A stretch of DNA of 32,000 nucleotides from contig NZ_WUUQ01000001.1 of assembly GCF_009831105.1 (NCBI RefSeq), forward strand, positions 270,001 through 302,000, given 5' to 3'. The position numbers and the translations under genes are program-made. Origin of the DNA: Copranaerobaculum intestinale. GTDB lineage: Bacteria; Bacillota_I; Bacilli_A; Erysipelotrichales; Erysipelotrichaceae. Every line of letters starts with the position of its first letter. Positions within the stretch are counted from its first letter, which is position 1. The notes beneath the pieces were generated by a model. That model was not told where the DNA came from. It made no database searches and worked only from the letters and a program-made list of their open reading frames with translations. Shown here piece after piece: positions 8,701 to 22,728 of the stretch.

Positions 8701-9501
8701 CAGGGTCATGTATTTCTTTTCCCCGTGTACTGCTTTCCGCAGTTCTACATAATCATCATAAACCTTTTGTAATTGATCATGAAACTTACCGGCTGTAATC
8801 GTTACTTCATCCAGCACCGTTTCAAAGGTCGTATGACGGCAGTGATCGCTCCAATAGGTATCAAGCACTTTGATCTCAGTAATTGTCGGGTCGCGCTGTT
8901 CTTCATTATCAAAATATTTCTGGATGTGCAGCAGATCTTCATCGCTCATCGCCAGACCTTCATTTTCCCGGTATGCGGCGATTTCTTTCTCGCTCCAACC
9001 GCAAAATCCATCGATCGTCAGCACCGGTTCGATCTCCACTTCTTCCTCACAGGCAAGCACAGATAAATCCTTTTCACGCATTTCTACCGGATTGATCAGA
9101 TATTTGCGTACTGCCTGCATGGTGACTTCATCCACAGCACCTTCAAAAACAACAAGTTTACCGCTCTTGATGATAACTTCTTCCTTATTATTCAGCAGCA
9201 TTAAGCATTGCTGCGCGCTGTCCGAACGCTGATCATACTGTCCCGGCAGATATTCCATCGCAATGTATGACTTTCCTTCCAAGGCTAGATCATTCAGCAC
9301 TTCATCCGTTACCACCTCGGACAGCACCCGCTGTTTTAGGAGTGCTATATCCTGATCATCCGCATGAAATACATCATAGATATTAAACAGCTGCAGTGAT
9401 GTAACGCCGGATAAATCAAAATTTGTTTTCAGTTCCTCGAAAAGTGACTGTGATTCGATTCGATAGGCAGGCTTCTTTGTAACATAGATACGTGTATTCA
9501 T
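5797..9501 (-). CDS. purL: phosphoribosylformylglycinamidine (FGAM) synthase, single-chain large form with fused glutaminase domain
   Basis: 1234 aa. It has an N-terminal PurS-like region, duplicated AIRS-type domains (DHCRHTTF, ETHNHP) and a C-terminal class-I amidotransferase (GICNGFQAL, HGEG). Confidence 0.95.
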   Translation of the reverse strand: MNTRIYVTKKPAYRIESQSLFEELKTNFDLSGVTSLQLFNIYDVFHADDQDIALLKQRVLSEVVTDEVLNDLALEGKSYIAMEYLPGQYDQRSDSAQQCLMLLNNKEEVIIKSGKLVVFEGAVDEVTMQAVRKYLINPVEMREKDLSVLACEEEVEIEPVLTIDGFCGWSEKEIAAYRENEGLAMSDEDLLHIQKYFDNEEQRDPTITEIKVLDTYWSDHCRHTTFETVLDEVTITAGKFHDQLQKVYDDYVELRKAVHGEKKYMTLMDMATIAGKYLRKTGYLDDLEVSEEINACSVEIEVDVNGVKEPWLLMFKNETHNHPTEIEPFGGASTCIGGAIRDPLSGRSYVYQAMRITGAGDINKDLNDTLANKLPQSVISKSAAQGYSSYGNQIGLATTYVKELYHEGYVAKRMEVGAVVGAAPKAWVVRKEPCAGDIVVLLGGATGRDGIGGATGSSKEHNESSLTKCSSEVQKGNAPVERKLQRLFRNPEATRMIKRSNDFGAGGVSVAIGELAPGIDIDLDVVPVKYRGLNGTELAISESQERMAVVIEAAQFEAFKELAYQENLDATKVAVVTDDNRLVMHCKGETIVDISRAFLDTNGVRQHQKVTITTVEQDENPFHHEEVCTKENLLENLAKENTASQKGLVEMFDSTIGKSTVLMPYGGKYQLTESEASVQKLPVMGLTDTCSIMSYGFHPGVSCYSPYLAGAYSVVEALARVAAVGGDIHKARLTCQEYFERLHQDEVRWGKPAQALLGVIEAQLAFKTPAIGGKDSMSGTYKNISVPPTIITFAVATGNTGNIISSEWKKSGSKIYLVKHPIHDDETPDYEALNKNFDTVHSYIKKKTILSAATVKFGGIAETLCKMSFGNKIGIRVDTEEALFALSIGSLLVEATEDIQDENFILLGETGGDEIVINGVSLNMEEAIAKWMSRYEQLYPTKTDTDGKPVQTPLYHIQEHKHARTRIDKPKVIIPVFPGNNCEYDTKQQFERAGAEVEVYVFNNLSVEAVKRSLKELSEKIASSQILMLVGGFSSGDEPDGSGKFIANVLQNEQVYQAVQTLLANDGLILGICNGFQALIKSGLLPYGDITKLDEASPTLFRNNINRHVSRMAMTQIASNKSPWLSSFTPGELHNIAFSHGEGKFVVDEEVAKELFANGQIATQYTDLEGNPTMNGAFNVNGSSYAIEGITSVDGHIFGKMGHCERYEEGLMKNIDGNKVQDIFLNGVNYFRGR

Positions 9502-9516
9502 AAGATTCTCCTCTGT

Positions 9517-10608
9517 TTATATAATCGCGGCTTCCGCTTCTTGAATCAATTCTTCCAAATTTTCACCCCAGAAGGTGATATGTCCCATTTTACGATTGAT
9601 CCGTGCTTCCGGTTTTCCATACAGGTATAAACGGGCGTGATCGGGAAGCTCATGACTGACTGCCGCTTCCAGATACTGCCCCAGGACATTCACCATCACA
9701 CATGGCTTGGTTATAGCCGGCTCCAGCACATCGCCGTTCAGAATTGCACGCAGAGCATTTTCGTATTGACTGACTTGATAACCATCCATAGTAAGGTGTC
9801 CGCTGTTGTGGGGACGCGGTGCGATTTCATTCACGTAAATCTCTCCGTCTTTCCCAACAAACATTTCAATCGCCACGATACCAATGAAATCAAGGCGATC
9901 CATTATCTGTATGGCAATCCGCTTCGCCTTGTTTTTCATCACATCATCGACTCTTGCCGGTGAAATGGACAAATGCAGAATGCCATTTTCATGAATGTTT
10001 TCGATCGGTTCAAAAGTAATCGTCTTGCCGGTCTTCCCGCGTACGGCAATTACGGATATCTCACATGCGAAATCGACCATCGATTCCACAATGTATTCAT
10101 TCGCTTTGAACTGGGTAACAAAATCATACAGATCAAAATCATTACGGATGACCCACTGTCCTTTTCCATCATAGCCGCCGGTACAGGTCTTGATAAGAAA
10201 AGGATATTCCATAAGGCGGGATAGCGATTGTGCTTCTTCAATCGTATGTAATGGTAAAAAATTCGCTGTCTTGATGCCTGCCTCATGAATGCTGGTTTTT
10301 TCGGTAATTCGATGCTGAGCAATTAACAGCGGCTTCTTTCCCTGCGGAACATTCGCATGTATGGATTTGAGAAAATCAATGACCTCGGCTTTGACATTTT
10401 CAAATTCATAGGTGATGACATCGCTTTGTGATGCAAGGATACTGAGCGCGTCATGATCATCATATTCCGCGCATACAAACTCATCGCTGTTTTGCCGTGC
10501 CGAAGCATCATGTCCCGGATCCAGCACGACCGTGGTATGACCGAGTGCATGAGCGGCATCGACCAGATACATGCCCAGCTGTCCGCCGCCGATAATACCT
10601 ACTCGCAT
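9517..10608 (-). CDS. purK: N5-carboxyaminoimidazole ribonucleotide synthase (ATP-grasp)
   Basis: 363 aa. [13 protein letters not shown]-terminus and ATP-grasp core ([19 protein letters not shown]). Confidence 0.93.
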
Positions 10609-11090
10609 ACTTCAATCAGCGCGTCATCCAGCACTGTCTGGGTTTGTTTATGACGATATTCCTGCAGCCGTTTCGCAACTGCTTCATCTTGAAGCCCCAC
10701 GATCTGCGCGGCCAGAATTCCAGCATTTTTCGCACCTGCGGTACCGATCGCAACGGTCGCAACCGGAATGCCTCCCGGCATCTGAACGATGGAAAGCAGC
10801 GAATCCAAACCATTCAGCGCTTTCGACTGAACCGGAACACCGATTACCGGTAAGGTAGTCATGGCCGCAACCATGCCCGGTAAATGAGCTGCCCCTCCGG
10901 CGCCCGCAATGATCACCTGAATGCCGTTTCTCTTTGCTTCTTTTGCATACTCAACCATCGAATGCGGAGTACGGTGAGCGGAAATCACTTTTACTTCATA
11001 GGAAATCTGAAATTCTTTCAGCATATCCACAGCGTTCTGCATTGTCGCAAGATCGCTGCGGCTACCCATAATAACACTTACTTTTGCCAT
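10599..11090 (-). CDS. purE: N5-carboxyaminoimidazole ribonucleotide mutase
   Basis: 163 aa. Motifs [15 protein letters not shown] and [19 protein letters not shown] upstream. Overlaps purK by 10 nt. Confidence 0.95.
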
Positions 11091-11213
11091 CGTAACTACC
11101 TCCTAAATTAAAAAAACATATTGTGAAAAATACTCTCAATATGTAGCGTGAAAATAGATTGTCGAATCCTTTATAGAGTACACATTCATATTTCGCATAA
11201 AAGCTGTACCTCC

Positions 11214-11266
11214 TATAAAAAAGAAAAAACGTAAAAGCATGCCTAGCAAGCAAACTTTTACGTTTT
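11214..11266 (-). terminator. riboswitch expression-platform terminator
   Basis: Minus strand: AAAACGTAAAAG (11266-11255) pairs with CTTTTACGTTTT (11237-11226) as a 12-bp perfect stem with a 17-nt loop, followed by TTCTTTTTT. It lies between the aptamer and the purE RBS. Confidence 0.85.
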
Positions 11267-11291
11267 CAAAAGTCGAAAAAGCAAAAATCCG

Positions 11292-11358
11292 CTTGTAGTC
11301 CGCCGATTTACGGTCAGCAGGTAGAAACTTGTCATCCATATCATGACTATTATACAAG
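11292..11358 (-). promoter_or_regulatory. purine riboswitch aptamer, guanine/hypoxanthine-specific type
   Basis: The minus strand reads CTTGTATAATAGTCATGATATGGATGACAAGTTTCTACCTGCTGACCGTAAATCGGCGGACTACAAG. P1 is CTTGTA/TACAAG. P2 is GTCAT-GATATGG-ATGAC. P3 is CTGCTGA-CCGTAAA-TCGGCGG. The conserved junctions TATAAT, GTTTCTACC and GACTA are present. The specificity position is C (GAC-TA), as in xpt-type guanine sensors. Confidence 0.93.
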
Positions 11359-11377
11359 CATAACTATTTACATTTTT

Positions 11378-11406
11378 ATTTTACAAGAGATATATGTATA
11401 TATCAA
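11378..11406 (-). promoter_or_regulatory. sigma-A-type promoter of the pur operon
   Basis: Minus strand: TTGATA (11406-11401), 17 nt spacer, TAAAAT (11383-11378). This places the TSS about 13 nt before riboswitch P1. Confidence 0.6.
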
Positions 11407-11463
11407 GGAGAAAATCAGAAATTCCCACATGAAAAAGATTGTATTTTAGTGTAAGCATTTCCA

Positions 11464-11793
11464 TTATTTTTCTCGTAAAGCGCGATATGTTGCGATCATA
11501 GTAAGAACAAAAATGAATACTACACTTTGCTTCGTGATGATCCATTCCAAGTGCGGATTCTCAAATAAACCAAGCAGAACACCAATACTGATTCCTGCAA
11601 ATAAGAAGAGATCCACGAAAAAACGCTGTCCCGTTCCATACATCACCCATTCAAGCGCAACCATCATGGTAAGCATCAGCAGTATCATTCCGGCATGAAA
11701 AACCAAGACGAAATTTGGTACACAAAAGACTGACAGCAATATAATTCCAATAAATCCAAACGTATAGATCATCATTATCTGTTTGTATCTCAT
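11464..11793 (-). CDS. small integral membrane protein, function unknown
   Basis: About 109 aa with three or four hydrophobic helices. I trimmed the start from the track's TTG at 11817 to the ATG at 11793 (MRYKQIMMIY...), which has an AAAGGAGG RBS 8 nt upstream. I recognise no family. Confidence 0.6.
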   Translation of the reverse strand: MRYKQIMMIYTFGFIGIILLSVFCVPNFVLVFHAGMILLMLTMMVALEWVMYGTGQRFFVDLFLFAGISIGVLLGLFENPHLEWIITKQSVVFIFVLTMIATYRALREK

Positions 11794-12166
11794 AAGCCAA
11801 GCCTCCTTTACAAGCAAATTGACTATGATTCCATCTTCACCTATAAATTTTATAATATGAATATAAATATATTTCAGATATTAAGATATGCAAGAGGATT
11901 AATCTAATATTTGTCTAAGTGGTGATTTGCCAAAAAAATTTGAATAACTATATTTCTATATAATACCTTTATCCATCAATTGTAAAGTAAAAACAATGAT
12001 CATAGTACGAAATGCTATTACATATTCAAAACATTAAACCGAAAGAAATGAAACGATCCCTCTTAAAAAGCATAAACTCACTTATTTCATATGTATGTCA
12101 GTTAACTCTAATTTTTATCTGGTTATCACTATCTAAATTTTATTGTTACATACTTTAAATGTATAG

Positions 12167-12195
12167 TTGACAAACTTGTTATAATAACTTAGAAT
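12167..12195 (+). promoter_or_regulatory. sigma-A-type promoter of the GntR/PTS locus
   Basis: TTGACA (12167-12172), 17 nt spacer, TAGAAT (12190-12195), 33 nt upstream of the GntR start. Confidence 0.65.
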
Positions 12196-12209
12196 GTTGT
12201 TATAATAAG
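12176..12209. promoter_or_regulatory. two candidate GntR/HutC operators (direct repeat of a short palindrome)
   Basis: The 12-nt sequence TTGTTATAATAA occurs at 12176-12187 and again at 12197-12208, offset by exactly 21 bp. Each copy contains a GTTAT-A-ATAAC/G palindrome (12178-12188, 12199-12209) of the GT...AC type used by GntR-family proteins. The first lies in the promoter spacer and the second just after the -10. Confidence 0.5.
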
Positions 12210-12227
12210 TGTGAAAGGGGTTTCTTT

Positions 12228-12971
12228 ATGGCTGTGATTGACAAGCAAACAAACGTGCCAATGCACGCACAACTATATCAGATTCTTCAAAAGCGTATCA
12301 CTGAGGGGGTATATCCCGTTAATAGTGTTATGCCTTCCGAAGCAGATATACAGTCAGAATTTGAAGTAAGCCGAATTACCGTACGCCGGGCTGTCAGTGA
12401 TCTTGAACGTGATGGCTACGTTCGCAAGAAACGTGGTTCCGGCACAATTGTTCTGCCACAGAAGACTTATCATGACCGATTCCAATTCACTGGGTATAGC
12501 GAGGATGCGATTGCGCACGGGAATCATCCTGGTTCCATCGTGCTGGAATGCGTTGATCTTCCCGCCGACATCCGCGTTAGTGAGATGCTGAAAGTAGAAC
12601 CTGGGGAAACCGTTACCTATTTAAAACGACTGCGTTTATTGAACGGAAAAATCAATGGGCTGCATGAAACCTATATCTCACATCGTTATGATTTTAGGAT
12701 CAGGATAACGGATTTTGATTCCATGACATCGCTATACGATTATTATGATAAGCATGGCATCATACTGGACAGTGCGGATGAGAGTATCTCCGCAAAAATG
12801 CCGAATTCGGCAATTCGTAAAGAGCTATATATGGACGAGAATCAACCCGTGTTTTATCGAGAGCGTGTTACGTATGACAGTAAAGGAGGGGTTGTGGAAT
12901 ACTCTCGAAACTATTATCGTGCAGACGACTATAACTATTTTGTTCATTTGACGAAAGACAAAGTAAATTGA
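12228..12971 (+). CDS. GntR-family transcriptional regulator, HutC subfamily (wHTH + UTRA effector domain)
   Basis: 247 aa. N-terminal motif LPSEADIQSEFEVSRITVRRAVSDLERDGYVRKKRGSGTIV is the GntR wHTH. The C-terminal ~160 aa have the UTRA-like pattern. AAAGGGG RBS. Confidence 0.88.
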   Translation: MAVIDKQTNVPMHAQLYQILQKRITEGVYPVNSVMPSEADIQSEFEVSRITVRRAVSDLERDGYVRKKRGSGTIVLPQKTYHDRFQFTGYSEDAIAHGNHPGSIVLECVDLPADIRVSEMLKVEPGETVTYLKRLRLLNGKINGLHETYISHRYDFRIRITDFDSMTSLYDYYDKHGIILDSADESISAKMPNSAIRKELYMDENQPVFYRERVTYDSKGGVVEYSRNYYRADDYNYFVHLTKDKVN

Positions 12972-12987
12972 AGAGAGGAGGAATTGA

Positions 12988-13719
12988 ATGAAGATATATG
13001 ATGTTCACGCACATCTGGGAAAAACAAGCTCCGGTGAATCAAACAGCGCCGCCATGCTGGTGGAAGAGTTGAAGAGTTTCGGCATTTCCAAGGTGGGGAT
13101 CAGTAGTTTATCCGGTACGGTAACCAAAGAACAGAACGATCTGGTTCATGATGCCATGACAGAATTTCCGGAATTTATTAAAGGGTATGCATTCATCAAT
13201 CCAAAAGCACCCGATGTTTATGAAGAAATTGAACGCTGTCTTGGTTTATATAACATGAATGGTGTGAAATTTCATCCTTGGAAACATGGTTATTATTCCG
13301 ATAACTGCTCCCAAATTGACGGTGTGCTGAGTGCTATTGAGAAATATGGTGTTCACATTCAGGTTCATGTAGGAACTAGTCCGCTGTGTACACCATTCCC
13401 ATGGATTCGTTATGCTAAACGTCACCCGAATTTGCGTGTACTATTCACTCACATGGGATGCCGAGAATTCGGTTACAGTACGATTGAAGCAATCAAGAAT
13501 GTAGAAAACATTGTAGTGGAAACATCCTGTCAAAATGAAGTTGAGAACCTGAAGCTTGCGGTTAAGGAGCTTGGTTCAAAACGCATTGTACTTGGAACGG
13601 ACTGGCCGTACAAGCCAACGAATATGGAAATTGAAAAAATGTACATGTTAGGTTTATCAGAAACTGAACTCGAAGATGTTATGTATAAGAATGCTGAATT
13701 ACTTTGGACAAAAAAGTGA
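12988..13719 (+). CDS. small metal-dependent hydrolase, amidohydrolase-fold (Amidohydro_2-like), copy 1
   Basis: 243 aa. The ligand pattern is complete: HxH near the N-terminus (DVHAHL), later His motifs (IQVHVG, LFTHMG) and a C-terminal Asp motif (LGTDWPY). GAGGAGG RBS. Confidence 0.75.
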   Translation: MKIYDVHAHLGKTSSGESNSAAMLVEELKSFGISKVGISSLSGTVTKEQNDLVHDAMTEFPEFIKGYAFINPKAPDVYEEIERCLGLYNMNGVKFHPWKHGYYSDNCSQIDGVLSAIEKYGVHIQVHVGTSPLCTPFPWIRYAKRHPNLRVLFTHMGCREFGYSTIEAIKNVENIVVETSCQNEVENLKLAVKELGSKRIVLGTDWPYKPTNMEIEKMYMLGLSETELEDVMYKNAELLWTKK

Positions 13720-13741
13720 CTCGGTGGGAAAGGAGAAAACG

Positions 13742-14233
13742 ATGAATATCACGGTAATGCGAATTGATGATCGTTTGATTCACGGACAAATCGTTACCAA
13801 ATGGATCGATTATGCCAATGCGAAAAAAATCATTGTGGTAGATGACAAGGCGGCCGGCGATCCGATGCAGCAGATGCTTTTGAAGCTTGCGGTGCCAAGC
13901 GGCGTAAAACTGGAAATTTTAACTAAGGCTGATGCATTAAAAATGATTCAGGAAGATACTTCTTCCATTAACGTGCTGCTGATGGTGAGAAATCCTAAAG
14001 AAGCAAATTCTCTGCTGGAAATGGGTCTAAAGGTTGATACGATCAATGTCGGAAACATCAGCAATTCCAAATCCGAAACCGGTCGAAAAAAGATGCTGGA
14101 TTTCATTTACCTGGAACAACAGGATGTGGAAGAATTACAGTCGATCGGAGCCAAAGGTGTGACATTGGAAATTCGTGCCATTCCTACCGATCGCAGTAAA
14201 GATATATTGGAATTGATCAAAAAGCACTATTAA
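13742..14233 (+). CDS. PTS mannose/sorbose-family EIIB component
   Basis: 163 aa starting MNITVMRIDDRLIHGQIVTKW, the phospho-His motif of Man-family IIB. I moved the start from the track's 13676 to the ATG at 13742, which follows an AAAGGAG RBS. Confidence 0.9.
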   Translation: MNITVMRIDDRLIHGQIVTKWIDYANAKKIIVVDDKAAGDPMQQMLLKLAVPSGVKLEILTKADALKMIQEDTSSINVLLMVRNPKEANSLLEMGLKVDTINVGNISNSKSETGRKKMLDFIYLEQQDVEELQSIGAKGVTLEIRAIPTDRSKDILELIKKHY

Positions 14234-14280
14234 TATATAGATTAATCGAGAACTATCAAAATAATAGGAGGATATGAAAT

Positions 14281-15027
14281 ATGAGTTTGTTATTGCAAGC
14301 TGTTTTAGTCTCGCTCGTTGTATGGATCGGCTTCCTCGATAAAGCGTTCCTACACACTTTTATTTACCGCCCCATCATTGTTGCCCCGGTCGTAGGATTA
14401 ATCATGGGCAATGTCAGTATCGGCTTAGAAGTCGGTGTCGCAGTTGAAACGATGTTCTTAGCCATGGTCTTCGTTGGAACAGCTGTTCCGCCTGATGAAA
14501 CCGTAAGCTCAGGTTTAGCCGCAGCCTATGCCTGTTTAGCCGGAAGTGCCGCAGTCGGTATCGCTACTGCCCTGCCGATCGCAATCATCGGTCAGATTTT
14601 CCGTCAGACCCGTAACGCGACCATCTATGAGTTTACCGTTAAACGTATGGAGCACTACGCACAGGAAGGTAATACGCACGGAATTATCATGTATACGACA
14701 ATCATTCCAAGTATCATTGAATATCTCTGTTTTGGTTTACCGACTTTTATCGGGGTTTACTTCGGTGCAGAGTACATTCAGGATTTCATCAATTTTATTC
14801 CGAAAGAAGTTATCTCCGGTATCGCAGCGGGAGCCGGCTTGATCGGTGCGGTTGGTGTGGCGCTGCTGCTAGGAACGATCAAGGATAAAACTACCTGGCC
14901 GTACTTCTTGGTAGGATTCTTTGTAGCATCCTATCTGGGCGTCAATATGATTGGTGTTGCCGTTGTGGCAATCGTATGCGTAGCGTTGAATTACTACAAA
15001 GATAAACTATCTCAGGAAGAGGAATAG
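14281..15027 (+). CDS. PTS mannose/sorbose-family EIIC component
   Basis: 248 aa polytopic membrane protein with a Man-family IIC-like sequence (FLDKAF..., GLEVGVAVE, MVFVG). TAGGAGG RBS. Sits between IIB and IID. Confidence 0.85.
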   Translation: MSLLLQAVLVSLVVWIGFLDKAFLHTFIYRPIIVAPVVGLIMGNVSIGLEVGVAVETMFLAMVFVGTAVPPDETVSSGLAAAYACLAGSAAVGIATALPIAIIGQIFRQTRNATIYEFTVKRMEHYAQEGNTHGIIMYTTIIPSIIEYLCFGLPTFIGVYFGAEYIQDFINFIPKEVISGIAAGAGLIGAVGVALLLGTIKDKTTWPYFLVGFFVASYLGVNMIGVAVVAIVCVALNYYKDKLSQEEE

Positions 15028-15036
15028 GAGGATATC

Positions 15037-15888
15037 ATGAGCGAAACTATTAATAACGAGGTTCAGTCTAATGATGTAACACTGACTAAAAAAGATCTCT
15101 GGAAAATATTGATTTATTCATCTGCGATTGAGAGTGGATGTAATGTTACCAAACAGGAAGCTCCTGGATTTACTCAGGGTATGATTCCTGTTATCGAAAA
15201 ATGCTATGATAAGGATGAAGATAAAAAAGAAGCGTATACACGTCATACTCAATTATTCTTAACGGAAGGCCATCTTGCTGAGTTCTGCGTTGGAGTATCC
15301 GCCGCAATGGAAGAACGCTATGCAAATCATCGTGATATTGATCCGGATTCAATCAATGCGGTAAAGGTTGCGCTGATGGGACCGCTTGCCGGCATTGGTG
15401 ATTCGATTATTCATGGCACGCTGCGTCCGATCATGGCAGGCATCGCATGTTCATTAGTAACTGCCAGCTCCAATACCAGTGCACTAGGACCCTTGCTGTT
15501 CTTCATCGTAATGGCTGCGGTAACGCTGACCATTCGTTATCTCGGTGTCTTTAAGGGTTATGAAAGCGGTATGAAGCTGGTTGCCAGCATGCAAGAAGGC
15601 GGTTTGCTGAACAAACTGACAAAATATGCAGCCATCGCTGCCTTCATTGTCTGCGGTGGGTTTATTTCTTCATTGGTTTATTGTTCTACACCGCTTACGT
15701 ATACCAGTGGAAAAACAGTTATCAGTGTTCAAGAAATGTTGGATGGCTTGATGCCTAACCTGATTCCACTTCTGTATACCTTATTGATGTATTGGCTGAT
15801 TAACAAGAAACGCGTTTCTGCAGTCCTGTTGATGCTGGCAACTATGATACTCGGCATTGTCTTGGTTTACTGTGGTATTCTAGCATAA
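15037..15888 (+). CDS. PTS mannose/sorbose-family EIID component
   Basis: 283 aa. Hydrophilic N-terminal region (LTKKDLWKI...) followed by membrane helices, which is the IID architecture. TAGGAGG RBS 9 nt after the IIC stop. The usual SWNYERMQ-type N-terminal motif is divergent here. Confidence 0.85.
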   Translation: MSETINNEVQSNDVTLTKKDLWKILIYSSAIESGCNVTKQEAPGFTQGMIPVIEKCYDKDEDKKEAYTRHTQLFLTEGHLAEFCVGVSAAMEERYANHRDIDPDSINAVKVALMGPLAGIGDSIIHGTLRPIMAGIACSLVTASSNTSALGPLLFFIVMAAVTLTIRYLGVFKGYESGMKLVASMQEGGLLNKLTKYAAIAAFIVCGGFISSLVYCSTPLTYTSGKTVISVQEMLDGLMPNLIPLLYTLLMYWLINKKRVSAVLLMLATMILGIVLVYCGILA

Positions 15889-15918
15889 CTGTATGATTCA
15901 GAAAGGAGGTTTTATCCT

Positions 15919-16647
15919 TTGATTATTGATTTTCACGCGCATTTAATACGCGATATGATAACTAAGCAGTATGATGTAGAAGACTGTCTGAATGATATGG
16001 AGAAAAATCATATCAATAAACGAGTCATTTCGACCTTGGAAGGAAAATCGACACGGGATCAAAACGATTTCATCGCTTCCTTAGTTGATCAGTACCCGGA
16101 TCGCTTTATAGGATGTGCGGCCATTAATCCAAAAGAAGATGACTGTGTAGAGGAAGTAAAACGGCTTACAACGATACCGCAGATCAAGATTTTGGAATTT
16201 GACCCATGGGAGCATGGTTTCTTACCGGAACGCTATTCCTATCACTTGGATCAAATTTTCGAAATTGCTCAGGAGCATGGATTTATTATCAAAATGTTTG
16301 CGGGCTGGGGACCGCGCACGATGCCGGAGCAATGGACCCGTTATTGTTTGAAATTCCCCGACTTAACCTTTGTCGTACTCCACATCGGCGGTATTGATTT
16401 CGGTTATGGAGCGATTGACTTCATTGAAGAAATGCCAAATGTGATGACCGAAACATCTGATCAGACAGAAATTCAGGTTTTGCATAAAGCGTTTAAGAAA
16501 CTGCCAATCCAGAAGATGTTATTTGGATCAAATTATCCGAAGAACTTTACCAAATGCTCCATTGATACCTTCGATTGTCTGCACTTGAGTAAAGAAGATC
16601 AGGCATATATGTTTTATAAAAATGCAGAAGCATTGTTCAAGAAATAG
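15919..16647 (+). CDS. amidohydrolase-fold protein, copy 2 (paralogue of 12988-13719 with altered ligand positions)
   Basis: 242 aa. TTG start 9 nt after a GAAAGGAGG RBS. Collinear with copy 1 (DFHAHL, QND, AINPK, DPWEHG, FGY, ETS.Q.E, YKNAE.LFKK). IQVHVG is replaced by IKMFAG and GTDWPY by GSNYPK. Confidence 0.75.
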   Translation: MIIDFHAHLIRDMITKQYDVEDCLNDMEKNHINKRVISTLEGKSTRDQNDFIASLVDQYPDRFIGCAAINPKEDDCVEEVKRLTTIPQIKILEFDPWEHGFLPERYSYHLDQIFEIAQEHGFIIKMFAGWGPRTMPEQWTRYCLKFPDLTFVVLHIGGIDFGYGAIDFIEEMPNVMTETSDQTEIQVLHKAFKKLPIQKMLFGSNYPKNFTKCSIDTFDCLHLSKEDQAYMFYKNAEALFKK

Positions 16648-16651
16648 TGAG

Positions 16652-16680
16652 AATGGGATAGATTACTCGGCTATCCCATT
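16652..16680 (+). other. intra-operon stem-loop (possible partial terminator or mRNA processing/stability element)
   Basis: AATGGGATAG (16652-16661) pairs with CTATCCCATT (16671-16680) as a 10-bp perfect stem with a 9-nt loop. It is followed by TATATAGAGG rather than a clean U-run. It sits in the 50-nt gap before the eIF2B-like gene. Confidence 0.5.
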
Positions 16681-16697
16681 TATATAGAGGTGAGGAA

Positions 16698-17648
16698 ATG
16701 GATAGAGAAACAATCCGCAGCATGCTGAGTGTTGAAAATCAGCAGCTGTTTGATCAAATTGTTACCGGAGCGGTGCTGGGAGCTGGTAATCATATCAGAA
16801 TCATCGGCAATATTATTTTGAATATTGCTCAAAAAGAAGAGGCTCCCATCGAAATTAAGAAGCAGAAAATTGAAGCAGTCAGTGAATTTTTTAAAGCGAC
16901 CCGCGGCAAATCCAGTTATGCTTTTATCAATGCAATGAATATTATGACATCTTTTCTCCATAAGGAAAACTGTACCGTAGCCGATATAGAAACGGCGGTG
17001 CTGTCTTATGATAAAGGAAACGAAGCGAATTGTGAACGAATCATTACCTATGCAAAACGTGCAGTTGCCGGAAGTAAGACAATTATGCTGTACGACTATT
17101 CCAGCACCGTCGAGAAATTTGTAAAAGCATTGGAGCCGGGCATGGTTATTTATATTCCGGAAAGCCGTACCATTGACGGCGGCCGACCATTTATCGAACC
17201 ATTAAAAAAAGCGAGACATGATCTGCGTTATATTCCCGATGCTTGTATGATGAGCGTGCTGAAAGATTGTGATGCGGTATGTATCGGAGCAGAAACTTTA
17301 TATCCCGACGGCACTAGCTTCAATACCGCCGGATCAGATATTCTGGCTGTGCTCTGTAAAGAGTTCAATATTCCTTATTACGTATTAACGCCCCTTTTAA
17401 AAATTGACATGCGGGCTTTACAGGGAATTTATAAAGATGTGATCGCAGCAGATCTGAAAGTAAAGCTAACAGCGGGATGGGAAGCGGAACAAGCTGATGC
17501 CGTTGACTGTTACAGCATTGAACTGGTTGGGGTAAAACCTCAATACATCTCCGCAGTGATTACTGAAGCAGGTATCCTTCCTCCCGCTGCTGTTTATACA
17601 GAGGCACTTGCTTATCAAGAACGCATTACGAAAGGAGGATCTCTATGA
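16698..17648 (+). CDS. eIF2B-like (IF-2B family; MtnA / ribose-1,5-bisphosphate isomerase-related) protein, divergent
   Basis: 316 aa. Family-typical motif order: TIMLYDYSSTVEKFV, IYIPESR, DAVCIGAETLYPDGTSFNTAGS, IPYYVLTPLLKID. GAGGTGAGG RBS. Confidence 0.7.
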   Translation: MDRETIRSMLSVENQQLFDQIVTGAVLGAGNHIRIIGNIILNIAQKEEAPIEIKKQKIEAVSEFFKATRGKSSYAFINAMNIMTSFLHKENCTVADIETAVLSYDKGNEANCERIITYAKRAVAGSKTIMLYDYSSTVEKFVKALEPGMVIYIPESRTIDGGRPFIEPLKKARHDLRYIPDACMMSVLKDCDAVCIGAETLYPDGTSFNTAGSDILAVLCKEFNIPYYVLTPLLKIDMRALQGIYKDVIAADLKVKLTAGWEAEQADAVDCYSIELVGVKPQYISAVITEAGILPPAAVYTEALAYQERITKGGSL

Positions 17649-18457
17649 ATATGAAAGAGGTTAGGCTGCCGCTGGCATTGGTGATGATTCAGCCGGATCC
17701 GCTGCCGGGCAGCTATCTGCACCAAGGAGACAGCTTTGAAGCGATCCAAAAACGAGTCATGGACGAAGCAGAAATGATCGTGAATACCGGATTTGACGGG
17801 TTCATTTTGCAAAATATGCATGACGGACCGATTGGACAAACCGCAAACCCGGAAACAATTGCATATATGACGGTTCTCGCGAAATACTTAAAGGATCGTT
17901 ATCCTGACAAAGTGCTGGGAATTCTTGTGAATTGGGATGGTGTCGCATCGCTTGCGGCAGCGGCAGCGGCCAACGCGGATTTCATCAGGGTTGAGCATTT
18001 GTATACCGGAGTTGCGGTCGGCAATGTCGGCTTCATGCAGGGTCAATGTCGTGAAATTTGTGAATTTAAGAAACGGCTTGGATTGAATATTCCAGTCTAT
18101 GCCGATGCTCAGGAAGTAAACAGCACGTACGTTGCGCCAAAACCAAAAGTACAGACTGCGGTCGATGTCGTAAAAAGTGCGTTTGCGGATGGACTGTTTA
18201 TCAGCGGTAGTGATACTGAAGAGAGCTTACAGTTGATTAAAGATGTGAAAAAACGCCTTCCCAACACGTTGACGTTTCTAGGCGGCGGAGCGAATGGCGA
18301 TAATATTCGTGAATTAATGAGATATTATGATGGGGTTAGCGTCGCTACTTGGATCAAGAACGGAGACATGAAAAATCCCATTGATCCAAAACGTGCTGAG
18401 ATATTCTTAAAAGAGATTGAAAAAGCCCGTGAAGATCGAAAAAGAGGCAATCTATGA
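17645..18457 (+). CDS. BtpA/SgcQ-family TIM-barrel protein, function unknown
   Basis: 270 aa. The N-terminal pattern ...QPDPLPGSYLHQGDSFEAIQKRVMDEAEMIVNTGFDGFILQNMHDGP matches my recollection of the BtpA signature (LPGSP...GvDgiivEN..D.P). ATGA overlap with the upstream gene. Confidence 0.65.
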   Translation: MNMKEVRLPLALVMIQPDPLPGSYLHQGDSFEAIQKRVMDEAEMIVNTGFDGFILQNMHDGPIGQTANPETIAYMTVLAKYLKDRYPDKVLGILVNWDGVASLAAAAAANADFIRVEHLYTGVAVGNVGFMQGQCREICEFKKRLGLNIPVYADAQEVNSTYVAPKPKVQTAVDVVKSAFADGLFISGSDTEESLQLIKDVKKRLPNTLTFLGGGANGDNIRELMRYYDGVSVATWIKNGDMKNPIDPKRAEIFLKEIEKAREDRKRGNL

Positions 18458-18858
18458 TCGGCATTATTTTGACCGGACATGCCCAATTCGCATCCGGTTT
18501 AACCAGCTCTATGCATTTATTAGCCGGTGAAGTGGAACAGTATGCTTATGTTGATTTTCCCGCAGGTATGGATCAGTATGATCTGTTAGAAAAAATTAAG
18601 CAGGCAAAAGAACAGCTGTCTGACTGTAAGGAATGGATTCTTCTCACTGATATCGTCGGGGGAACTCCCTTCAAAATGAGTGTCCTCTATTCCATGCAGG
18701 AAGAACATGTGCGGGTTCTGACAGGAACCAGTCTGCCATTGTTATTACAGATGGTTCTATCCCGCAGCACGATCAAAAATACCGATGAACTGATTCAATC
18801 TTCGATTAAGGAAGCAGCCGGTTCCATGGTTGAATTTCATGCTAAGGATTATCAATAG
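18454..18858 (+). CDS. PTS mannose-family EIIA component (stand-alone)
   Basis: 134 aa starting MIGIILTGHAQFASGL, the EIIA-Man N-terminal phospho-His motif, with a later DIVGGTPF motif. ATGA overlap with the BtpA-like gene. Confidence 0.88.
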   Translation: MIGIILTGHAQFASGLTSSMHLLAGEVEQYAYVDFPAGMDQYDLLEKIKQAKEQLSDCKEWILLTDIVGGTPFKMSVLYSMQEEHVRVLTGTSLPLLLQMVLSRSTIKNTDELIQSSIKEAAGSMVEFHAKDYQ

Positions 18859-18891
18859 GTCTGTATATTAACTTCTAACTGACAGTTATGT

Positions 18892-18931
18892 AAAATCAGT
18901 ATCGCTCTCACAAGGTGCATACTGATTTTTT
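18892..18931 (+). terminator. Rho-independent terminator of the GntR/PTS locus
   Basis: AAAATCAGTAT (18892-18902) pairs with ATACTGATTTT (18919-18929) as an 11-bp perfect stem, followed by further Ts. Confidence 0.85.
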
Positions 18932-19107
18932 AGTGCTTCTTTCCCTAAATATCCCATTCATTGTCTGCAAAGACTTGTCAATTACCACCCAGCGATGGAA
19001 AGCACAGGTAATTTATTCTTTTATAAAACGAACTTCCGCATAATTATAAAAGTTAAACGAAAGAAACGACAAAGCGATAAGCGTATCTAAATATTAGATG
19101 ATGCTTA

Positions 19108-19357
19108 TTAATCAATCATAAAACGAATAATCATCATTATTACTCCCAATAGTGCTAAAGTTTGATAAACTTTAAAATCACTGCTCCGATTCAATTTCTG
19201 AGCTCGATATGCTTCCCCAATACCCAATATTGTCAACGTCGTAGCACCAAGCACTTCAGACGTTTTAGAGTCTAAAATAAATTAACATGTAATAAAAGTA
19301 TTCCAATGAAAATAATAATTAATAAAAATGTAGTTAGCAGCTTATGCTTTTTTTCAT
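19108..19357 (-). pseudogene. frameshifted remnant of a small membrane protein, weak paralogue of 19772-20038
   Basis: The ATG at 19357 is followed by an A7 run and a stop after 7 codons. The +1 frame continues EKKHKLLTTFLLIIIFIGILLLHVNLF-stop. A third frame then reads ...TSEVLGATTLTILGIGEAYRAQKLNRSSDFKVYQTLALLGVIMMIIRFMID-stop (19108-19110). Both pieces are collinear by eye with KKYGSLIVLLICIVISGVLYFN and TSTVIDALAGLGWIIYEARKAKLENRT of the 88-aa neighbour. Confidence 0.35.
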
Positions 19358-19523
19358 GTTAATCATCTCTCTTTATAATCATGCGTATATATATGGTTTT
19401 CTCTTCAATAAAGAAAGGCGTATTGTCTATTATTGCATTGTACTTTATTTTGTATATCAATAAGAAAGCACCCTGTGTTTATCATATAATTCATTATTTT
19501 GATAGATTACTTTTTCTTTTTTA

Positions 19524-19772
19524 TTACAAAAAATAAAATACAAACATCAAAATGAATACTATTTTAAAAACGATCAAAAACCTATTGAGATGGCCGGTTA
19601 TACAATAACTTAGATTCGATCTTACACCAAACATATTCATGCTTATGATAGGAAATGAATATAAAATGTCAGCAATCCCTAAAATAATGATTCTAGCAAG
19701 AAAATCAAGTTACTATTTAATAACTTCATCTAATTCTTCATAAGAAAAATTTTCATCTTTCTTTGATGTCAT
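19524..19772 (-). pseudogene. small ORF interrupted by tandem in-frame stops (19-codon peptide plus hydrophobic remainder)
   Basis: The ATG at 19772-19770 overlaps the stop of the 88-aa ORF (TAATG). It reads MTSKKDENFSYEELDEVIK, then TAG TAA (19715-19710). The same frame then continues for 61 codons as LDFLARIIILGIADILYSFPIISMNMFGVRSNLSYCITGHLNRFLIVFKIVFILMFVFYFL, ending in TAA TAA. Confidence 0.3.
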
Positions 19773-20038
19773 TACAATAAATCAATAATCAGCATGATTG
19801 CCTCTATACACACACCGATGAAAAAAATTTTAGCGACGATAGTACGATTTTCCAATTTTGCTTTTCTAGCCTCGTAGATAATCCATCCAAGACCCGCTAA
19901 AGCATCAATGACTGTACTTGTTTGATGATTAATAATTTTATTGAAGTAAAGTACTCCTGAAATGACTATACAAATTAATAATACGATAAGGGATCCATAT
20001 TTTTTTATAAACGTTTCCTCTTTTATCTTTTTTTCCAT
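19772..20038 (-). CDS. small membrane protein (88 aa, about three hydrophobic helices), function unknown
   Basis: Intact ORF with a purine-rich RBS (GAAAGGAAAAAGGG) upstream. The N-terminus is charged and is followed by hydrophobic segments. I recognise no family. Confidence 0.5.
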   Translation of the reverse strand: MEKKIKEETFIKKYGSLIVLLICIVISGVLYFNKIINHQTSTVIDALAGLGWIIYEARKAKLENRTIVAKIFFIGVCIEAIMLIIDLL

Positions 20039-20397
20039 AATCTTAAACCCTTTTTCCTTTCTAAATATTTGTGCTAATTATCATAATAGCTCATCGTTTA
20101 ACAGATTTAAATTATCCAAATTCAATTATTGATCCCATCAGATAAATCATGATAATTGCCTCCCTTCGCACCCATTAATCAACCTTAACTCTGACAACTT
20201 TATTGTATCAAGTTATCTATATATGTGAATAGATTTGGTATGAGATGTCACTTTTTATGTATGAAATGCATTATTTTTGATTTTCTTAAAACTCATCATT
20301 ACTAAAAACTACAACCTTATTAAAAGCTTATTGAATTATGTTAAGATTTGGATTGAGAATCTAAAGATGTGTTTCAGAAACTATTTTCAGGAAAGTG

Positions 20398-20426
20398 TTG
20401 CAATTATTTTCATTTAGGTTTATGAT
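20398..20426 (+). promoter_or_regulatory. sigma-A-type promoter of the aro operon
   Basis: TTGCAA (20398-20403), 17 nt spacer, TATGAT (20421-20426). Confidence 0.6.
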
Positions 20427-20448
20427 ATACATGCTTGGAGTGATAAAT

Positions 20449-20490
20449 ATGAAAATCCAAACTCAGAACTATTATTTTTATTTTAGATAG
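20449..20490 (+). CDS. candidate aromatic-amino-acid leader peptide MKIQTQNYYFYFR
   Basis: GGAG (20437-20440) lies 8 nt upstream of the ATG at 20449. The ORF has 13 sense codons plus TAG. Codons 8-12 (20470-20484) are Tyr-Tyr-Phe-Tyr-Phe. It lies between the promoter and aroB and abuts a set of alternative hairpins. Confidence 0.55.
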   Translation: MKIQTQNYYFYFR

Positions 20491-20580
20491 TCCCAAATAA
20501 ACCATCAAAAGATTGTATGGTTATTTTGTTGTTTATTTGGGACAAAAAAAGCACAGACGATTAAGTTGGTGCTTTTTTTT
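20490..20580 (+). promoter_or_regulatory. candidate attenuator: mutually exclusive hairpins plus terminator-like stem
   Basis: A perfect 13-bp helix forms between GTCCCAAATAAAC (20490-20502) and GTTTATTTGGGAC (20531-20543). The same 5' arm can alternatively pair with 20517-20528. U-rich 20521-20529 is complementary (8 of 9) to 20542-20550. A7-GCAC (20544-20554) and GTGC-T8 (20569-20580) form a terminator-like hairpin that ends 19 nt before the aroB ATG. Confidence 0.45.
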
Positions 20581-20599
20581 CATTAAAGGAGGGCAGATC

Positions 20600-21601
20600 A
20601 TGAAACTAACAATGGACTTAGAGACAAATAGCTATGATATCCATTTGGATAACGGACTTCTTCATAAAATAGCAGATTTTATGGACGTCCACCGCAAAGT
20701 GATGGTTGTAACCGACAGCGGGGTTCCAGGTCAATATCTGGATACGGTTATGAAGCAGCTTTCTCACCCTTATTCCTATTGTTTAAAGGCCGGTGAATCC
20801 AGCAAAACTCTGGAAAATTTCAAAGCGGTATGTAAAGCTATGCTTGATCACCACTTTACCAGAAAGGATGCTGTGCTTGCGCTGGGAGGCGGTGTAGTCG
20901 GTGATTTGGCTGGGTTTGCGGCGGCGAGTTATATGCGGGGCATTGACTTCATTAATATTCCCACTACTACCCTCGCTCAGATTGACAGCAGTATCGGCGG
21001 TAAAGTGGCGGTAGATCTGGATGACGCAAAAAATATCATCGGTGCTTTCTATCAGCCGAAAACGGTTATTATCGATCCGCTTGTACTTTCCACATTATCA
21101 AAGCGGCATTATCGTAACGGACTTGTAGAAGCGTTGAAAGCAGGACTGATCTATGATCGTGAGTTATTTGAAATCTTTGAGAATGAGGATATTCACGCTT
21201 CCTTGGAAACAATTCTCGAGCGATCACTGAGGGTTAAAAAAGCCGTGGTTGAAGCGGATGAAAAAGAAAAAGGTATACGCAAAATTCTGAATTTCGGACA
21301 TACGATCGGACATGGTATTGAGAGTGCCGGCGGACTGACAGCGCTCCTGCATGGAGAGGCGGTTGCGTTGGGCATGCTGCCGATGATTGAAGATGAGCAG
21401 CTGCGAAAGCGATGCCGAGATATCTATAAAAAGTTAGATCTGCCACTTACCTATGACTTGTCTAAGGAAGCTATTTACGAATGGATGCTGAAAGATAAAA
21501 AAGCAGATGGCGAAGATCTGATTACCATCGTCAAGGTGGCAGAATGCGGAAAAGCAAAACTGGTTACTGTCCCATTCATTGATTTATATAACTATCTGTA
21601 A
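20600..21601 (+). CDS. aroB: 3-dehydroquinate synthase
   Basis: About 333 aa. Motifs GGGVVGDLAGFAAASYMRGIDFINIPTTTLAQIDSSIGGKVAVDL and the metal-site pattern LNFGHTIGH...HGEAVA. I moved the start from the track's 20513 to the ATG at 20600, which follows an AAAGGAGGG RBS. The track's extension runs through the leader hairpins. Confidence 0.93.
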   Translation: MKLTMDLETNSYDIHLDNGLLHKIADFMDVHRKVMVVTDSGVPGQYLDTVMKQLSHPYSYCLKAGESSKTLENFKAVCKAMLDHHFTRKDAVLALGGGVVGDLAGFAAASYMRGIDFINIPTTTLAQIDSSIGGKVAVDLDDAKNIIGAFYQPKTVIIDPLVLSTLSKRHYRNGLVEALKAGLIYDRELFEIFENEDIHASLETILERSLRVKKAVVEADEKEKGIRKILNFGHTIGHGIESAGGLTALLHGEAVALGMLPMIEDEQLRKRCRDIYKKLDLPLTYDLSKEAIYEWMLKDKKADGEDLITIVKVAECGKAKLVTVPFIDLYNYL

Positions 21602-21611
21602 GGGGAACAAT

Positions 21612-22712: not shown

Positions 22713-22728
22713 GAGGAAGGAAACTATC

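Follow-up and report, generated by a model that had tools for sequence, protein, structure and literature searches.

A nine-gene cassette in a 32,000-nucleotide stretch of Copranaerobaculum intestinale DNA (contig NZ_WUUQ01000001.1, positions 270,001 to 302,000; hereafter the window) joins a complete mannose-family phosphotransferase system (PTS) to a set of enzymes that we found in no characterised pathway, either among the NCBIfam equivalogs or in the searchable literature, which mostly excludes subscription-journal papers. It encodes a GntR/HutC-type regulator, two Amidohydro_2 proteins (AH1 and AH2), the PTS components EIIB, EIIC, EIID and EIIA (IIB, IIC, IID and IIA for short), an IF-2B-like protein and a BtpA/SgcQ-family protein (Table 1). 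We put the probability that the locus is one transcription unit encoding a complete catabolic route for a sugar derivative at roughly 0.5. PTS operons that serve the catabolism of one substrate under a local repressor are familiar; this enzyme set is not. A first-pass annotation, made from the DNA letters, had read the locus as a GntR-controlled mannose-family PTS catabolic system with a non-canonical enzyme set outside any characterised pathway. This reading is supported by protein profiles and co-conservation, and no curated model or publication that assigns a function was located.

Conservation of the cassette and of its core gene pair

One genome per species (185,579 species) was scanned with two peptide patterns, a design that under-samples divergent loci, and each locus was compared open reading frame (ORF) by ORF with the window proteins. 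The scan yielded 75 loci (given L numbers where they must be told apart), and the complete cassette, a count that required both AH1 and AH2, was detected in 47 of them. The GntR gene was present in 44 of the 47 full cassettes; it lay upstream in 33 loci and downstream in 11. The IIA gene closed the cassette at its 3' end in 22 loci and followed AH1 in another 22. AH1 preceded and AH2 followed the permease genes in every full cassette save L027, where the two are adjacent. Contigs of Dielma fastidiosa, Neobacillus kokaensis, a Blautia-like bacterium and an Anaerolineaceae metagenome-assembled genome (MAG) show the gene set and order of the window, the sole variations being a GntR or IIA gene at the opposite end and, in some cases, fused IIC and IID.

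The hosts comprise Erysipelotrichaceae, Lachnospiraceae, Clostridium, Oscillospiraceae, Bacillaceae, Isobaculum, Megamonas, Collinsella/Enorma and Anaerolineaceae, and the phyla carrying the cassette are Bacillota, Actinomycetota and Chloroflexota. The flanks vary between hosts, with purE and aro genes here and rpoC and rpsL in one common gut member of the Clostridiaceae. The cassette is real, tightly conserved, inherited and transferred as a block, and horizontally mobile; a search for plasmid carriage gave no match in PLSDB. Co-conservation in related genomes, on which the first-pass annotation had made its reading depend, extends across phyla. That unrelated genes came to stand beside a mannose-family PTS by accident is vanishingly improbable, as content and order recur in 47 loci of three phyla, and the translational overlaps and a co-travelling operator argue against it as well; since the flanks differ while the gene set is constant, a chance juxtaposition is for practical purposes excluded.

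Two variants were also observed. In L086/L087, the whole cassette (7996-15206) lies inside the otherwise highly conserved rpoBC-str junction, and a protein of this gut Clostridiaceae variant is indexed in 778 blocks of the sequence collection. In an Erysipelotrichaceae MAG (L039, 17803-20755, minus strand), a second, diverged set of mannose-type IIC/IID genes with an AH1-like gene (217 bits) and a BtpA-like gene (81 bits) adjoins a canonical cassette, and the locus ends at the contig cut.

The BtpA gene came immediately after the IF-2B-like gene in 74 of the 75 loci, and the two genes overlapped in 5 of the 7 annotated cases. The true conserved unit is the IF-2B-like and BtpA pair. In the remaining 28 loci the complete cassette was not detected by comparison; a few of these are contig-end fragments of it. 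Elsewhere the pair occurs with other uptake genes. In Oceanobacillus, Gracilibacillus and Pseudogracilibacillus, it is accompanied by a DeoR or GntR regulator, a ureidoglycolate-lyase-like cupin, an energy-coupling factor (ECF) transporter consisting of a CD3073-type S component, CbiQ and two ATPases, and a PfkB kinase that scored 293 bits against the ribokinase cut-off of 299.65. In L060, L066 and L091, it is found with an rbs-like ATP-binding cassette (ABC) transporter and PfkB, and in Amphibacillus, Peribacillus and Paenibacillus with a beta-glucoside-type EIIBC and IIA-Glc. Because the pair is coupled to a mannose-type PTS, to an ECF or ABC transporter with PfkB, or to a beta-glucoside-type PTS, it works in every case downstream of the phosphorylation of an imported small carbohydrate.

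Accessory genes near the pair encode a 485-residue CE4 deacetylase-like protein (L062, L066 and L068), an AllC-like M20 amidase (420 bits; cut-off 399), NagB (266 bits; TIGR00502 cut-off 236.9), M28 and M42 peptidase-like proteins, and SIS proteins including a double-SIS GlmS-C-like protein. In L080/L084 and L070/L076, the pair is joined by uridine-phosphorylase-like genes, DeoC, an NT5C-guanylate-kinase fusion and a HAD phosphatase.

Apparent pseudogene fragments of a second IF-2B-like/BtpA pair sit directly 3' of the intact pair in Peribacillus loiseleuriae (L081, 11273-12829) and in a Paenibacillus (L036, 12601-13017). Distant members of the same Asp/Glu IF-2B subfamily were seen in L088 (3062-7148), L089, L090 and L091. 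A PfkB gene lies beside them in L090 and L091, and a SIS-type gene is nearby, of the double-SIS GlmS-C-like kind in L088/L089. In addition, the latter two loci contain an M42 SgcX-like gene, a distant BtpA, a PhnS-like (2-aminoethylphosphonate-type) ABC system and a GntR/UTRA regulator; no PfkB was found among their called genes.

Catalytic-residue variation in the IF-2B-like protein

An exhaustive HMMER search of 1.84 billion representatives returned 5177 IF-2B relatives, of which 102 had E <= 1e-30. Approximately 126 relatives of the window protein remained at 90% clustering, and all of them are unnamed or labelled 'initiation factor 2'. The closest solved structures are ribose-1,5-bisphosphate (R15P) isomerases (E = 7e-24; 3a11/3vm6), ahead of eIF2B subunits and MtnA. 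The window protein did not reach the isomerase models, scoring 59.4 against the cut-off of 185.85 for TIGR00524 and 57 against 314.1 for TIGR00511.

In the R15P isomerase of T. kodakarensis, Cys133 and Asp202 are catalytic, Lys213 and Arg254 are ligands of the 1-phosphate, Ser135, Lys238 and Arg63 form the 5-phosphate side together with the backbone amides after Ser135, and Asn212 contacts the sugar hydroxyls O2 and O3 (PMC6423476). We transferred these roles to the window protein through a profile alignment. The catalytic Cys133 corresponds to an invariant Asp133 and the catalytic Asp202 to an invariant Glu199; His134 is replaced by Tyr134, Arg20 by Leu27 and the 1-phosphate ligand Lys213 by Thr210, and the position of Arg254 is not conserved. 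Ser135, Lys238 and Arg63 are kept on the 5-phosphate side, as is Asn212. Invariant polar residues occupy the expected active-site positions (D133, E199, K235, D237 and R239).

The subfamily signature, read from an hmmalign table of 110 representatives, is L27 / R-G / D-Y-S-S / E199 / N-T (T210) / K235. It holds from 436 down to approximately 129 bits, which covers roughly 80 full-length clusters, and proteins with the canonical C-H-S-S / D / N-K / R-P pattern start below approximately 129 bits. As judged from the alignments, the IF-2B-like proteins are a distinct small subfamily with a predicted new catalytic-residue variant, which widens the chemistry expected of the IF-2B fold. The window protein would keep an acid/base pair and a distal-phosphate pocket and would offer no room for a C1-phosphate. 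Having lost the 1-phosphate ligands while retaining the distal-phosphate site, it appears suited to the products of a PTS or of a ribokinase-type kinase. The first-pass annotation had found it paradoxical that the known IF-2B enzymes need C1-phosphorylated substrates, which a PTS does not produce; the paradox largely dissolves for a subfamily that lacks the 1-phosphate ligands and the catalytic Cys.

These residues also bear on a ribosyl or nucleoside-derived substrate, which a bacterial counterpart of the archaeal pentose bisphosphate pathway would process, with the IF-2B-like protein as an R15P-type isomerase and BtpA as the consumer of the ketose. We consider this very unlikely. It would agree with the closest solved relative and with the uridine-phosphorylase-like genes, DeoC, NT5C-guanylate kinase fusion, nucleotide pyrophosphatase-like gene and ribokinase-like kinase of some loci; in addition, some nitrogen-containing substrates induced the E. 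coli sgc operon, whose activity went up together with hypoxanthine accumulation in starvation (2026 paper). However, the catalytic Cys and both 1-phosphate ligands are absent throughout the subfamily, the scores lie far below the R15P-isomerase and MtnA cut-offs, and no phosphorylase or kinase accompanies the PTS of the window cassette. We set the pentose-bisphosphate analogy as such aside on account of the lost 1-phosphate ligands.

A predicted phosphate-binding barrel in BtpA

Neither single-protein nor profile searches detected a solved structure related to BtpA by sequence, and for the family PF03437, whose members include SgcQ of E. coli and the cyanobacterial BtpA of photosystem I biogenesis, we found neither a biochemical function nor a solved structure. 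The AlphaFold2 (AF2) model is a (beta/alpha)8 barrel with a predicted local distance difference test (pLDDT) score of 88. Foldseek matched it to generic phosphate-binding barrels only, at a template-modelling score (TM) of approximately 0.55. Ribulose-phosphate 3-epimerase (RPE) was the first match (E = 9e-9, TM 0.56), followed by the DPD FMN domain, DHPS, KDPG aldolase, GGGPS, TrpA and ThiE. The invariant residues Q16, Q56, N57, D60, D98, R115, E117, D154 and E157 lie at or just past the C-terminal ends of strands 1-5; a GGG loop follows strand 7 and a G-V-S motif is placed at strand 8, which in the model resemble a standard phosphate grip. A class I or class II aldolase received no support, as there is no conserved strand-borne Lys and no His cluster.

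The source annotations still use the legacy name 'membrane complex biogenesis protein BtpA'. On this name, and on the precedent of the eIF2B regulatory subunits, BtpA, the IF-2B-like protein or both could be non-enzymes that serve the transporter as assembly, chaperone or regulatory factors, with AH1 alone doing the chemistry. A 2026 E. coli atlas credits SgcQ with 'PTS chaperone-like features', the IF-2B-like protein lacks the canonical catalytic Cys, and its gene is absent from one cassette. We nevertheless give this explanation little credence. Next to ECF and ABC transporters that come with soluble kinases, the pair is conserved just as well, and it is thus tied to no single membrane complex. 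Active-site-type polar residues are invariant in the IF-2B-like protein, and so are Q16, D60, D98, E117, D154, E157 and the GGG phosphate loop in BtpA. Moreover, the photosystem I biogenesis equivalog (NF045918) was not reached (122.8 bits; cut-off 400), and the cassette hosts are non-phototrophic gut and soil taxa. A decades-old photosystem-biogenesis label persists on BtpA/SgcQ, for which the cassette provides a metabolic frame, namely a place after phosphorylating uptake and beside one partner. Its function becomes testable in cultivable hosts such as Dielma fastidiosa, Neobacillus kokaensis, Enterocloster citroniae and Isobaculum melis.

AH1 and AH2 as a putative active and degenerate pair

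AH1 and AH2 are paralogues with 31% identity over 241 residues. In AH1, H7, H9, H127, H155 and D205 are invariant in the alignments and make up the complete ACMSD-type constellation, that is, HxH on beta1, His on beta5, His on beta6 and Asp on beta8. In the alignments, LigW has its metal-ligand His and Asp at the positions of H127 and D205, and gamma-resorcylate decarboxylase has the conserved His of its GHMGE motif at that of H155. In Foldseek, the AF2 model of AH1 (pLDDT 92) matched 2dvu/3s4t with E = 2.5e-14 and a query TM (TMq) of approximately 0.8. The top matches as a group (TMq 0.72-0.82) were the gamma-resorcylate, 5-carboxyvanillate (LigW) and ACMSD decarboxylases, the LigJ hydratase and small uncharacterised members.

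AH2 retains H6, H8 and H155, and two metal ligands are lost: position 127 is Phe in 50 of 50 orthologues and D205 is replaced by Asn or Ser. The position of K94 is Glu in 100% of them. AH2 has invariant residues of its own (C66, E93, Q138, H155, D160, Y163 and E184). From these residues, AH1 is probably the active enzyme and AH2 a degenerate subunit; as ACMSD-type enzymes are obligate dimers, the two may form a heteromer. They would represent a natural active/degenerate amidohydrolase pair. The first-pass annotation had called two amidohydrolase paralogues bracketing the permease genes. Both do belong to Amidohydro_2, yet they are not equivalent, as the metal site of AH2 is degenerate and the nearest relatives are decarboxylases and hydratases. 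By its sequence, AH1 may hydrolyse, decarboxylate or hydrate its substrate.

We considered the invariant Lys94 of AH1 as the carboxylated bridging lysine of a binuclear centre. This was rejected because K94 aligns with a non-ligand position, and because alignments and fold place AH1 among the ACMSD/LigW-type decarboxylases. The metal centre of these decarboxylases is mononuclear.

Proposed pathway and substrate

We propose that the repressor, seated on paired operators, would keep its own promoter shut as long as no pathway intermediate, probably the phosphorylated substrate, is bound to the UTRA domain. The PTS would import the compound and phosphorylate a distal primary hydroxyl. AH1, probably in a heteromer with the degenerate AH2, would take off a substituent or open it and so unmask the sugar phosphate, and the IF-2B-like protein would isomerise the resulting sugar phosphate, with Asp and Glu replacing the Cys/Asp catalytic pair. 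BtpA would catalyse the second conversion, either an epimerisation or another proton transfer of that kind, and the end product would be an ordinary central metabolite.

The accessory genes found elsewhere encode amide or ureide hydrolases, NagB and GlmS-like SIS proteins, and IIA and IIC of the window are AgaF- and AgaW-like; on these grounds, we tentatively suggest, at odds clearly short of even, that the substrate is an N-substituted sugar, either an N-acyl or aminoacyl amino sugar or a compound of the glycosylamine, ureide or ketosamine type. The cassette is common in gut metagenomes, so that the substrate is probably a regularly available dietary or host-derived compound. A glycosyl-ureide was chemically attractive in view of the ureidoglycolate-lyase-like cupin, the AllC-like M20 amidase and the CE4 protein, but it was rejected, as no Clostridium innocuum locus is among the 75.

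A bolder and more doubtful proposal is that the pair is a new two-enzyme module, in which an isomerase on the R15P-isomerase scaffold acts on omega-phosphorylated N-substituted sugars and BtpA/SgcQ displays the first activity assigned to its family, while an AH1/AH2 heteromer of enzyme and pseudo-enzyme removes the substituent, altogether a new catabolic route by which gut and soil bacteria would use N-acyl amino sugars, glycosyl ureides, ketosamines and the like. If true, the cassette would also explain the orphan sgc operon of E. coli and possibly account for the 'sugar-ureide splitting' activity of gut bacteria.

Several observations weigh against the pathway and substrate class proposed above. 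The closest characterised relatives of AH1 are decarboxylases and a hydratase, not amidases, and among the nine window proteins Pfam searches found no deaminase or deglycase of the cassette's own. The match of BtpA to the RPE fold is weak (TM 0.56), and the protein has no solved relative. In Seinonella peptonophila (L085, 7352-12999), BtpA, AH1, AH2 and the PTS are kept, BtpA stands beside GntR and there is no IF-2B-like gene; the IF-2B-like step is dispensable there or supplied elsewhere in the genome. The accessory genes are heterogeneous and include nucleoside phosphorylases, DeoC and nucleotidase-type genes, so several substrates may be involved. Finally, we infer both the AH1-AH2 heteromer and the order of the IF-2B-like and BtpA steps, and the chemistry proposed for all steps is deduced from homology, residue conservation and gene neighbourhood.

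The main rival, which we regard as unlikely, is a sugar-acid or lactone route like that of L-ascorbate (Ula), in which AH1/AH2 would act as a lactonase or decarboxylase to yield a pentose or pentulose 5-phosphate that the IF-2B-like protein and BtpA convert to xylulose- or ribulose-5-phosphate. The nearest structures of AH1 (ACMSD-type decarboxylases, the LigJ hydratase and a LigI-like lactonase) and the nearest fold to BtpA (RPE) point in this direction, and the E. coli sgc operon likewise joins SgcQ with the RPE-like SgcE. The occurrence of the pair elsewhere with a kinase near the ribokinase cut-off and an rbs-like ABC transporter fits a core substrate of pentose-phosphate type, for which no decarboxylation is needed. 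However, the cassette has no dehydrogenase or other source of a beta-keto or enol acid for decarboxylation, the accessory genes elsewhere are mostly amide/ureide hydrolases and amino-sugar deaminases, and the PTS components are nearest to the N-acetylgalactosamine/galactosamine (GalNAc/GalN) type.

Promoter, operators and terminator

The sequence TTGACA-17-TAGAAT upstream of the GntR gene was the top match (11/12) in a promoter scan of 9 kb, in which promoter-like sites as a class were not enriched. It overlaps two putative operators (O1 and O2) spaced 21 bp apart; O1 lies within the promoter spacer, and O2 begins at the last base of the -10 hexamer and runs downstream. A direct search for the pattern TTGTTATAATAA allowing one mismatch gave 3 sites in the window, with 0.37 expected. 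The repeat in the window matches imperfectly the palindrome TGTTATAACA, whose extended form is ACtTGTTATAACAaGT, and the predicted candidate target of the GntR protein is ACTTGTTATAACAAGT.

Palindrome sites with at most one mismatch were found upstream of GntR, AH1 or IIB in 31 of the 47 orthologous cassettes. Their density was 1.31/kb upstream and 0.13/kb over the same loci, a ten-fold enrichment, and they are often paired approximately 21 bp apart, as in the window (L011, L039, L045, L049 and L069 are examples). The operator palindrome therefore travels with the cassette. The regulator carries the domains of the HutC subfamily of the GntR family (PF00392 and PF07702). Because the palindrome is co-conserved and its sites overlap the promoter, the GntR/HutC protein is probably an autoregulated repressor of the operon. 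No catabolite-control (cre) site was found at the promoter, and the window as a whole has four weak matches, with 3.0 expected.

The terminator hairpin has a folding energy of -17 kcal/mol (z = -2.68); its A+T-rich stem kept it off the list of the consensus scan. Of the regulatory features in the first-pass annotation, the consensus-like promoter with paired GntR-type palindromes held, with two exact copies of the pattern. For the one strong terminator, the hairpin and T run are present, whereas 'strong' is slightly generous for an A+T-rich stem.

Gene layout, family assignments and neighbouring genes

The nine co-directional ORFs span 12228-18858 on the plus strand, with intergenic gaps of 9-50 nt and two ATGA stop/start overlaps that were read directly in the sequence. 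All nine proteins exceed the Pfam gathering scores for their assigned families in a profile search. The IIB start agrees with the gene called in L001 (the mechanical ORF begins at 13676), and the AH2 N-terminus, MIIDFHAH, agrees with its orthologues. The same locus was seen again in several sequencing runs.

Table 1. Features of the PTS cassette and its control region in the window.
Feature	Position	Strand	Details
sigma-70-type promoter	12167-12195	+	-35 TTGACA 12167-12172; 17-nt spacer; -10 TAGAAT 12190-12195
Operator O1 (putative)	12174-12189	.	ACTTGTTATAATAACT; exact TTGTTATAATAA at 12176-12187
Operator O2 (putative)	12195-12210	.	TGTTGTTATAATAAGT; exact TTGTTATAATAA at 12197-12208
GntR/HutC-type regulator	12228-12971	+	247 aa; winged HTH and UTRA effector domain; PF00392 57.9 bits, PF07702 108.9 bits
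AH1, Amidohydro_2 metal-dependent enzyme	12988-13719	+	243 aa; PF04909 90.5 bits
PTS EIIB, mannose/sorbose family	13742-14233	+	163 aa; PF03830 (PTSIIB_sorb) 153.7 bits; RIDDRLIHGQ phospho-His motif
PTS EIIC, mannose/sorbose family	14281-15027	+	248 aa; PF03609 (EII-Sor) 192 bits
PTS EIID, mannose/sorbose family	15037-15888	+	283 aa; PF03613 (EIID-AGA) 293.7 bits
AH2, diverged Amidohydro_2 paralogue	15919-16647	+	242 aa; TTG start; PF04909 69.9 bits
IF-2B-like protein, distinct subfamily (predicted)	16698-17648	+	316 aa; PF01008 94.6 bits
BtpA/SgcQ-family TIM barrel	17645-18457	+	270 aa; PF03437 155.2 bits; start overlaps IF-2B-like stop
PTS EIIA, mannose family	18454-18858	+	134 aa; PF03610 (EIIA-man) 73.6 bits; TGHAQF phospho-His motif; start overlaps BtpA stop
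Intrinsic terminator	18892-18931	+	A+T-rich hairpin, then T run

IIA, IIB, IIC and IID each match their own profile and form the four-component set of a mannose/fructose/sorbose-family PTS (TC 4.A.6). The phosphorylatable His residues lie in the N-terminal GH of IIA and in the RIDDRLIHGQ-type loop of IIB; the translations show MIGIILTGHAQF and MNITVMRIDDRLIHGQ. None of the nine proteins reached an NCBIfam equivalog cut-off, and AH1 and AH2 had no NCBIfam match at all. BtpA reached just the family-level (subfamily) model TIGR00259 (160.9 bits; cut-off 153.4), and its PF03437 score compares with a threshold of 30. The named mannose-type PTS specificities were not reached (AgaF 125.6 vs 130; AgaW 133.8 vs 300; AgaE 133.9 vs 500; ManX 111 vs 400). 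The nearest NCBIfam matches of IIA and IIC were AgaF and AgaW, respectively, that is, the GalNAc/GalN system. In Pfam and NCBIfam searches, none of the nine proteins showed a SIS, kinase, aldolase, glycosidase or NagA/NagB domain.

These results agree with the first-pass account of nine co-directional genes with short gaps and ATGA overlaps, of a complete mannose-family PTS and of the missing usual partners. The odd proteins fall in the families it had named (Amidohydro_2, IF-2B and BtpA).

The cassette stands between the purE-purK-purL operon (minus strand, to 11090) and the aro cluster (from 20513). The divergently oriented purine operon consists of purE (10599-11090), purK (9517-10608) and a 1234-residue FGAM synthase (5797-9501), and its leader holds a purine riboswitch aptamer (11276-11377, minus strand; RF00167, 86.9 bits, gathering score 37). 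Between the riboswitch and the cassette promoter lies a hydrophobic 117-residue ORF with no assigned family (11464-11817, minus strand), and approximately 410 bp of A+T-rich intergenic DNA precede the GntR gene. Downstream of the terminator, positions 19000-20500 are A+T-rich (GC 0.28-0.35) and gene-poor, the only notable ORF encoding an 88-residue predicted membrane protein (19772-20038, minus strand); this stretch might be a scar of cassette insertion. The complete-looking aromatic amino-acid biosynthesis cluster follows (20513-25890, plus strand); by the Pfam tags on L001, it encodes DHQ synthase, chorismate synthase, DAHP synthase, EPSP synthase and prephenate dehydrogenase.

Comparison with known systems

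The substrate and biochemistry of the E. coli sgc operon, SgcQ included, 'remain to be established' (July 2026 paper), in agreement with the first-pass statement that this PTS operon is still uncharacterised. Like the window locus, sgcXBCQAER contains a BtpA/SgcQ-family gene in a PTS operon with a local repressor. We take the remainder of sgc, from its EcoCyc annotation, to consist of galactitol-type IIA/IIB/IIC, a DeoR regulator, the RPE-like SgcE and the M42 protein SgcX, presumably without an IF-2B-like gene, Amidohydro_2 genes or IID. The nine window proteins include no RPE, M42 or Gat-type IIC domain, and BtpA is the sole member shared with an sgc-type operon. The distant relatives of the window system in L088/L089 and the sgc operon both have an SgcX-like M42 gene and a BtpA-family gene.

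The catalytic IF-2B isomerases (R15P isomerase, MtnA and 5-deoxyribose-1-phosphate isomerase) share with the window protein the fold, the E-S/T-R motif, the equivalents of Arg63, Ser135, Asn212 and Lys238, and an acidic residue at the position of Asp202. Their partners are MtnK and an aldolase, or Rubisco, whereas the window protein is accompanied by BtpA and a PTS. The ACMSD-related enzymes (ACMSD, gamma-resorcylate decarboxylase, LigW and LigJ; 3cjp, 3irs and 6uvz) have the same TIM-barrel fold and HxH/His/His/Asp set as AH1. AH1 and AH2 are approximately 90 residues shorter than the ACMSD-type decarboxylases, with 14-19% identity, and they are a conserved active/degenerate pair, as far as their residues indicate, in a sugar PTS operon, whereas the ACMSD relatives belong to aromatic catabolism.

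The frl/fra loci for Amadori compounds (FrlR/FraR, a PfkB kinase and a SIS deglycase) share with our loci a GntR/UTRA regulator and phosphorylation by PfkB or a mannose-type PTS. Their PfkB/SIS set recalls the distant IF-2B subfamily members in clusters with PfkB and double-SIS genes. They have a SIS deglycase, which the window cassette lacks, and we know of no IF-2B-like, BtpA or Amidohydro_2 gene in them. In the D-allose (AlsI and AlsE) and L-ascorbate (UlaD/E/F) pathways, an isomerase and then an RPE-type TIM-barrel enzyme lead a phosphorylated rare sugar into central metabolism. These pathways serve as the working analogy for the IF-2B-like protein and BtpA, which belong to other protein families; the likeness is one of function and not of sequence-level membership.

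The aga (GalNAc/GalN), gfr (fructoselysine/glucoselysine) and dga (glucosaminate) systems use an Amidohydro_1 deacetylase (AgaA), SIS deaminases or deglycases (AgaS, GfrE/F) or DgaE/DgaF, and many of them are under sigma-54/LevR control. Their enzyme domains are absent from the nine window proteins, which do not reach the Aga equivalog cut-offs. Nevertheless, they have a four-component mannose-type PTS and a dedicated regulator like those of the window, and the proposed pathway would share their logic, in which the substrate is phosphorylated at entry, a nitrogenous substituent is removed and the product is isomerised to a glycolytic intermediate.

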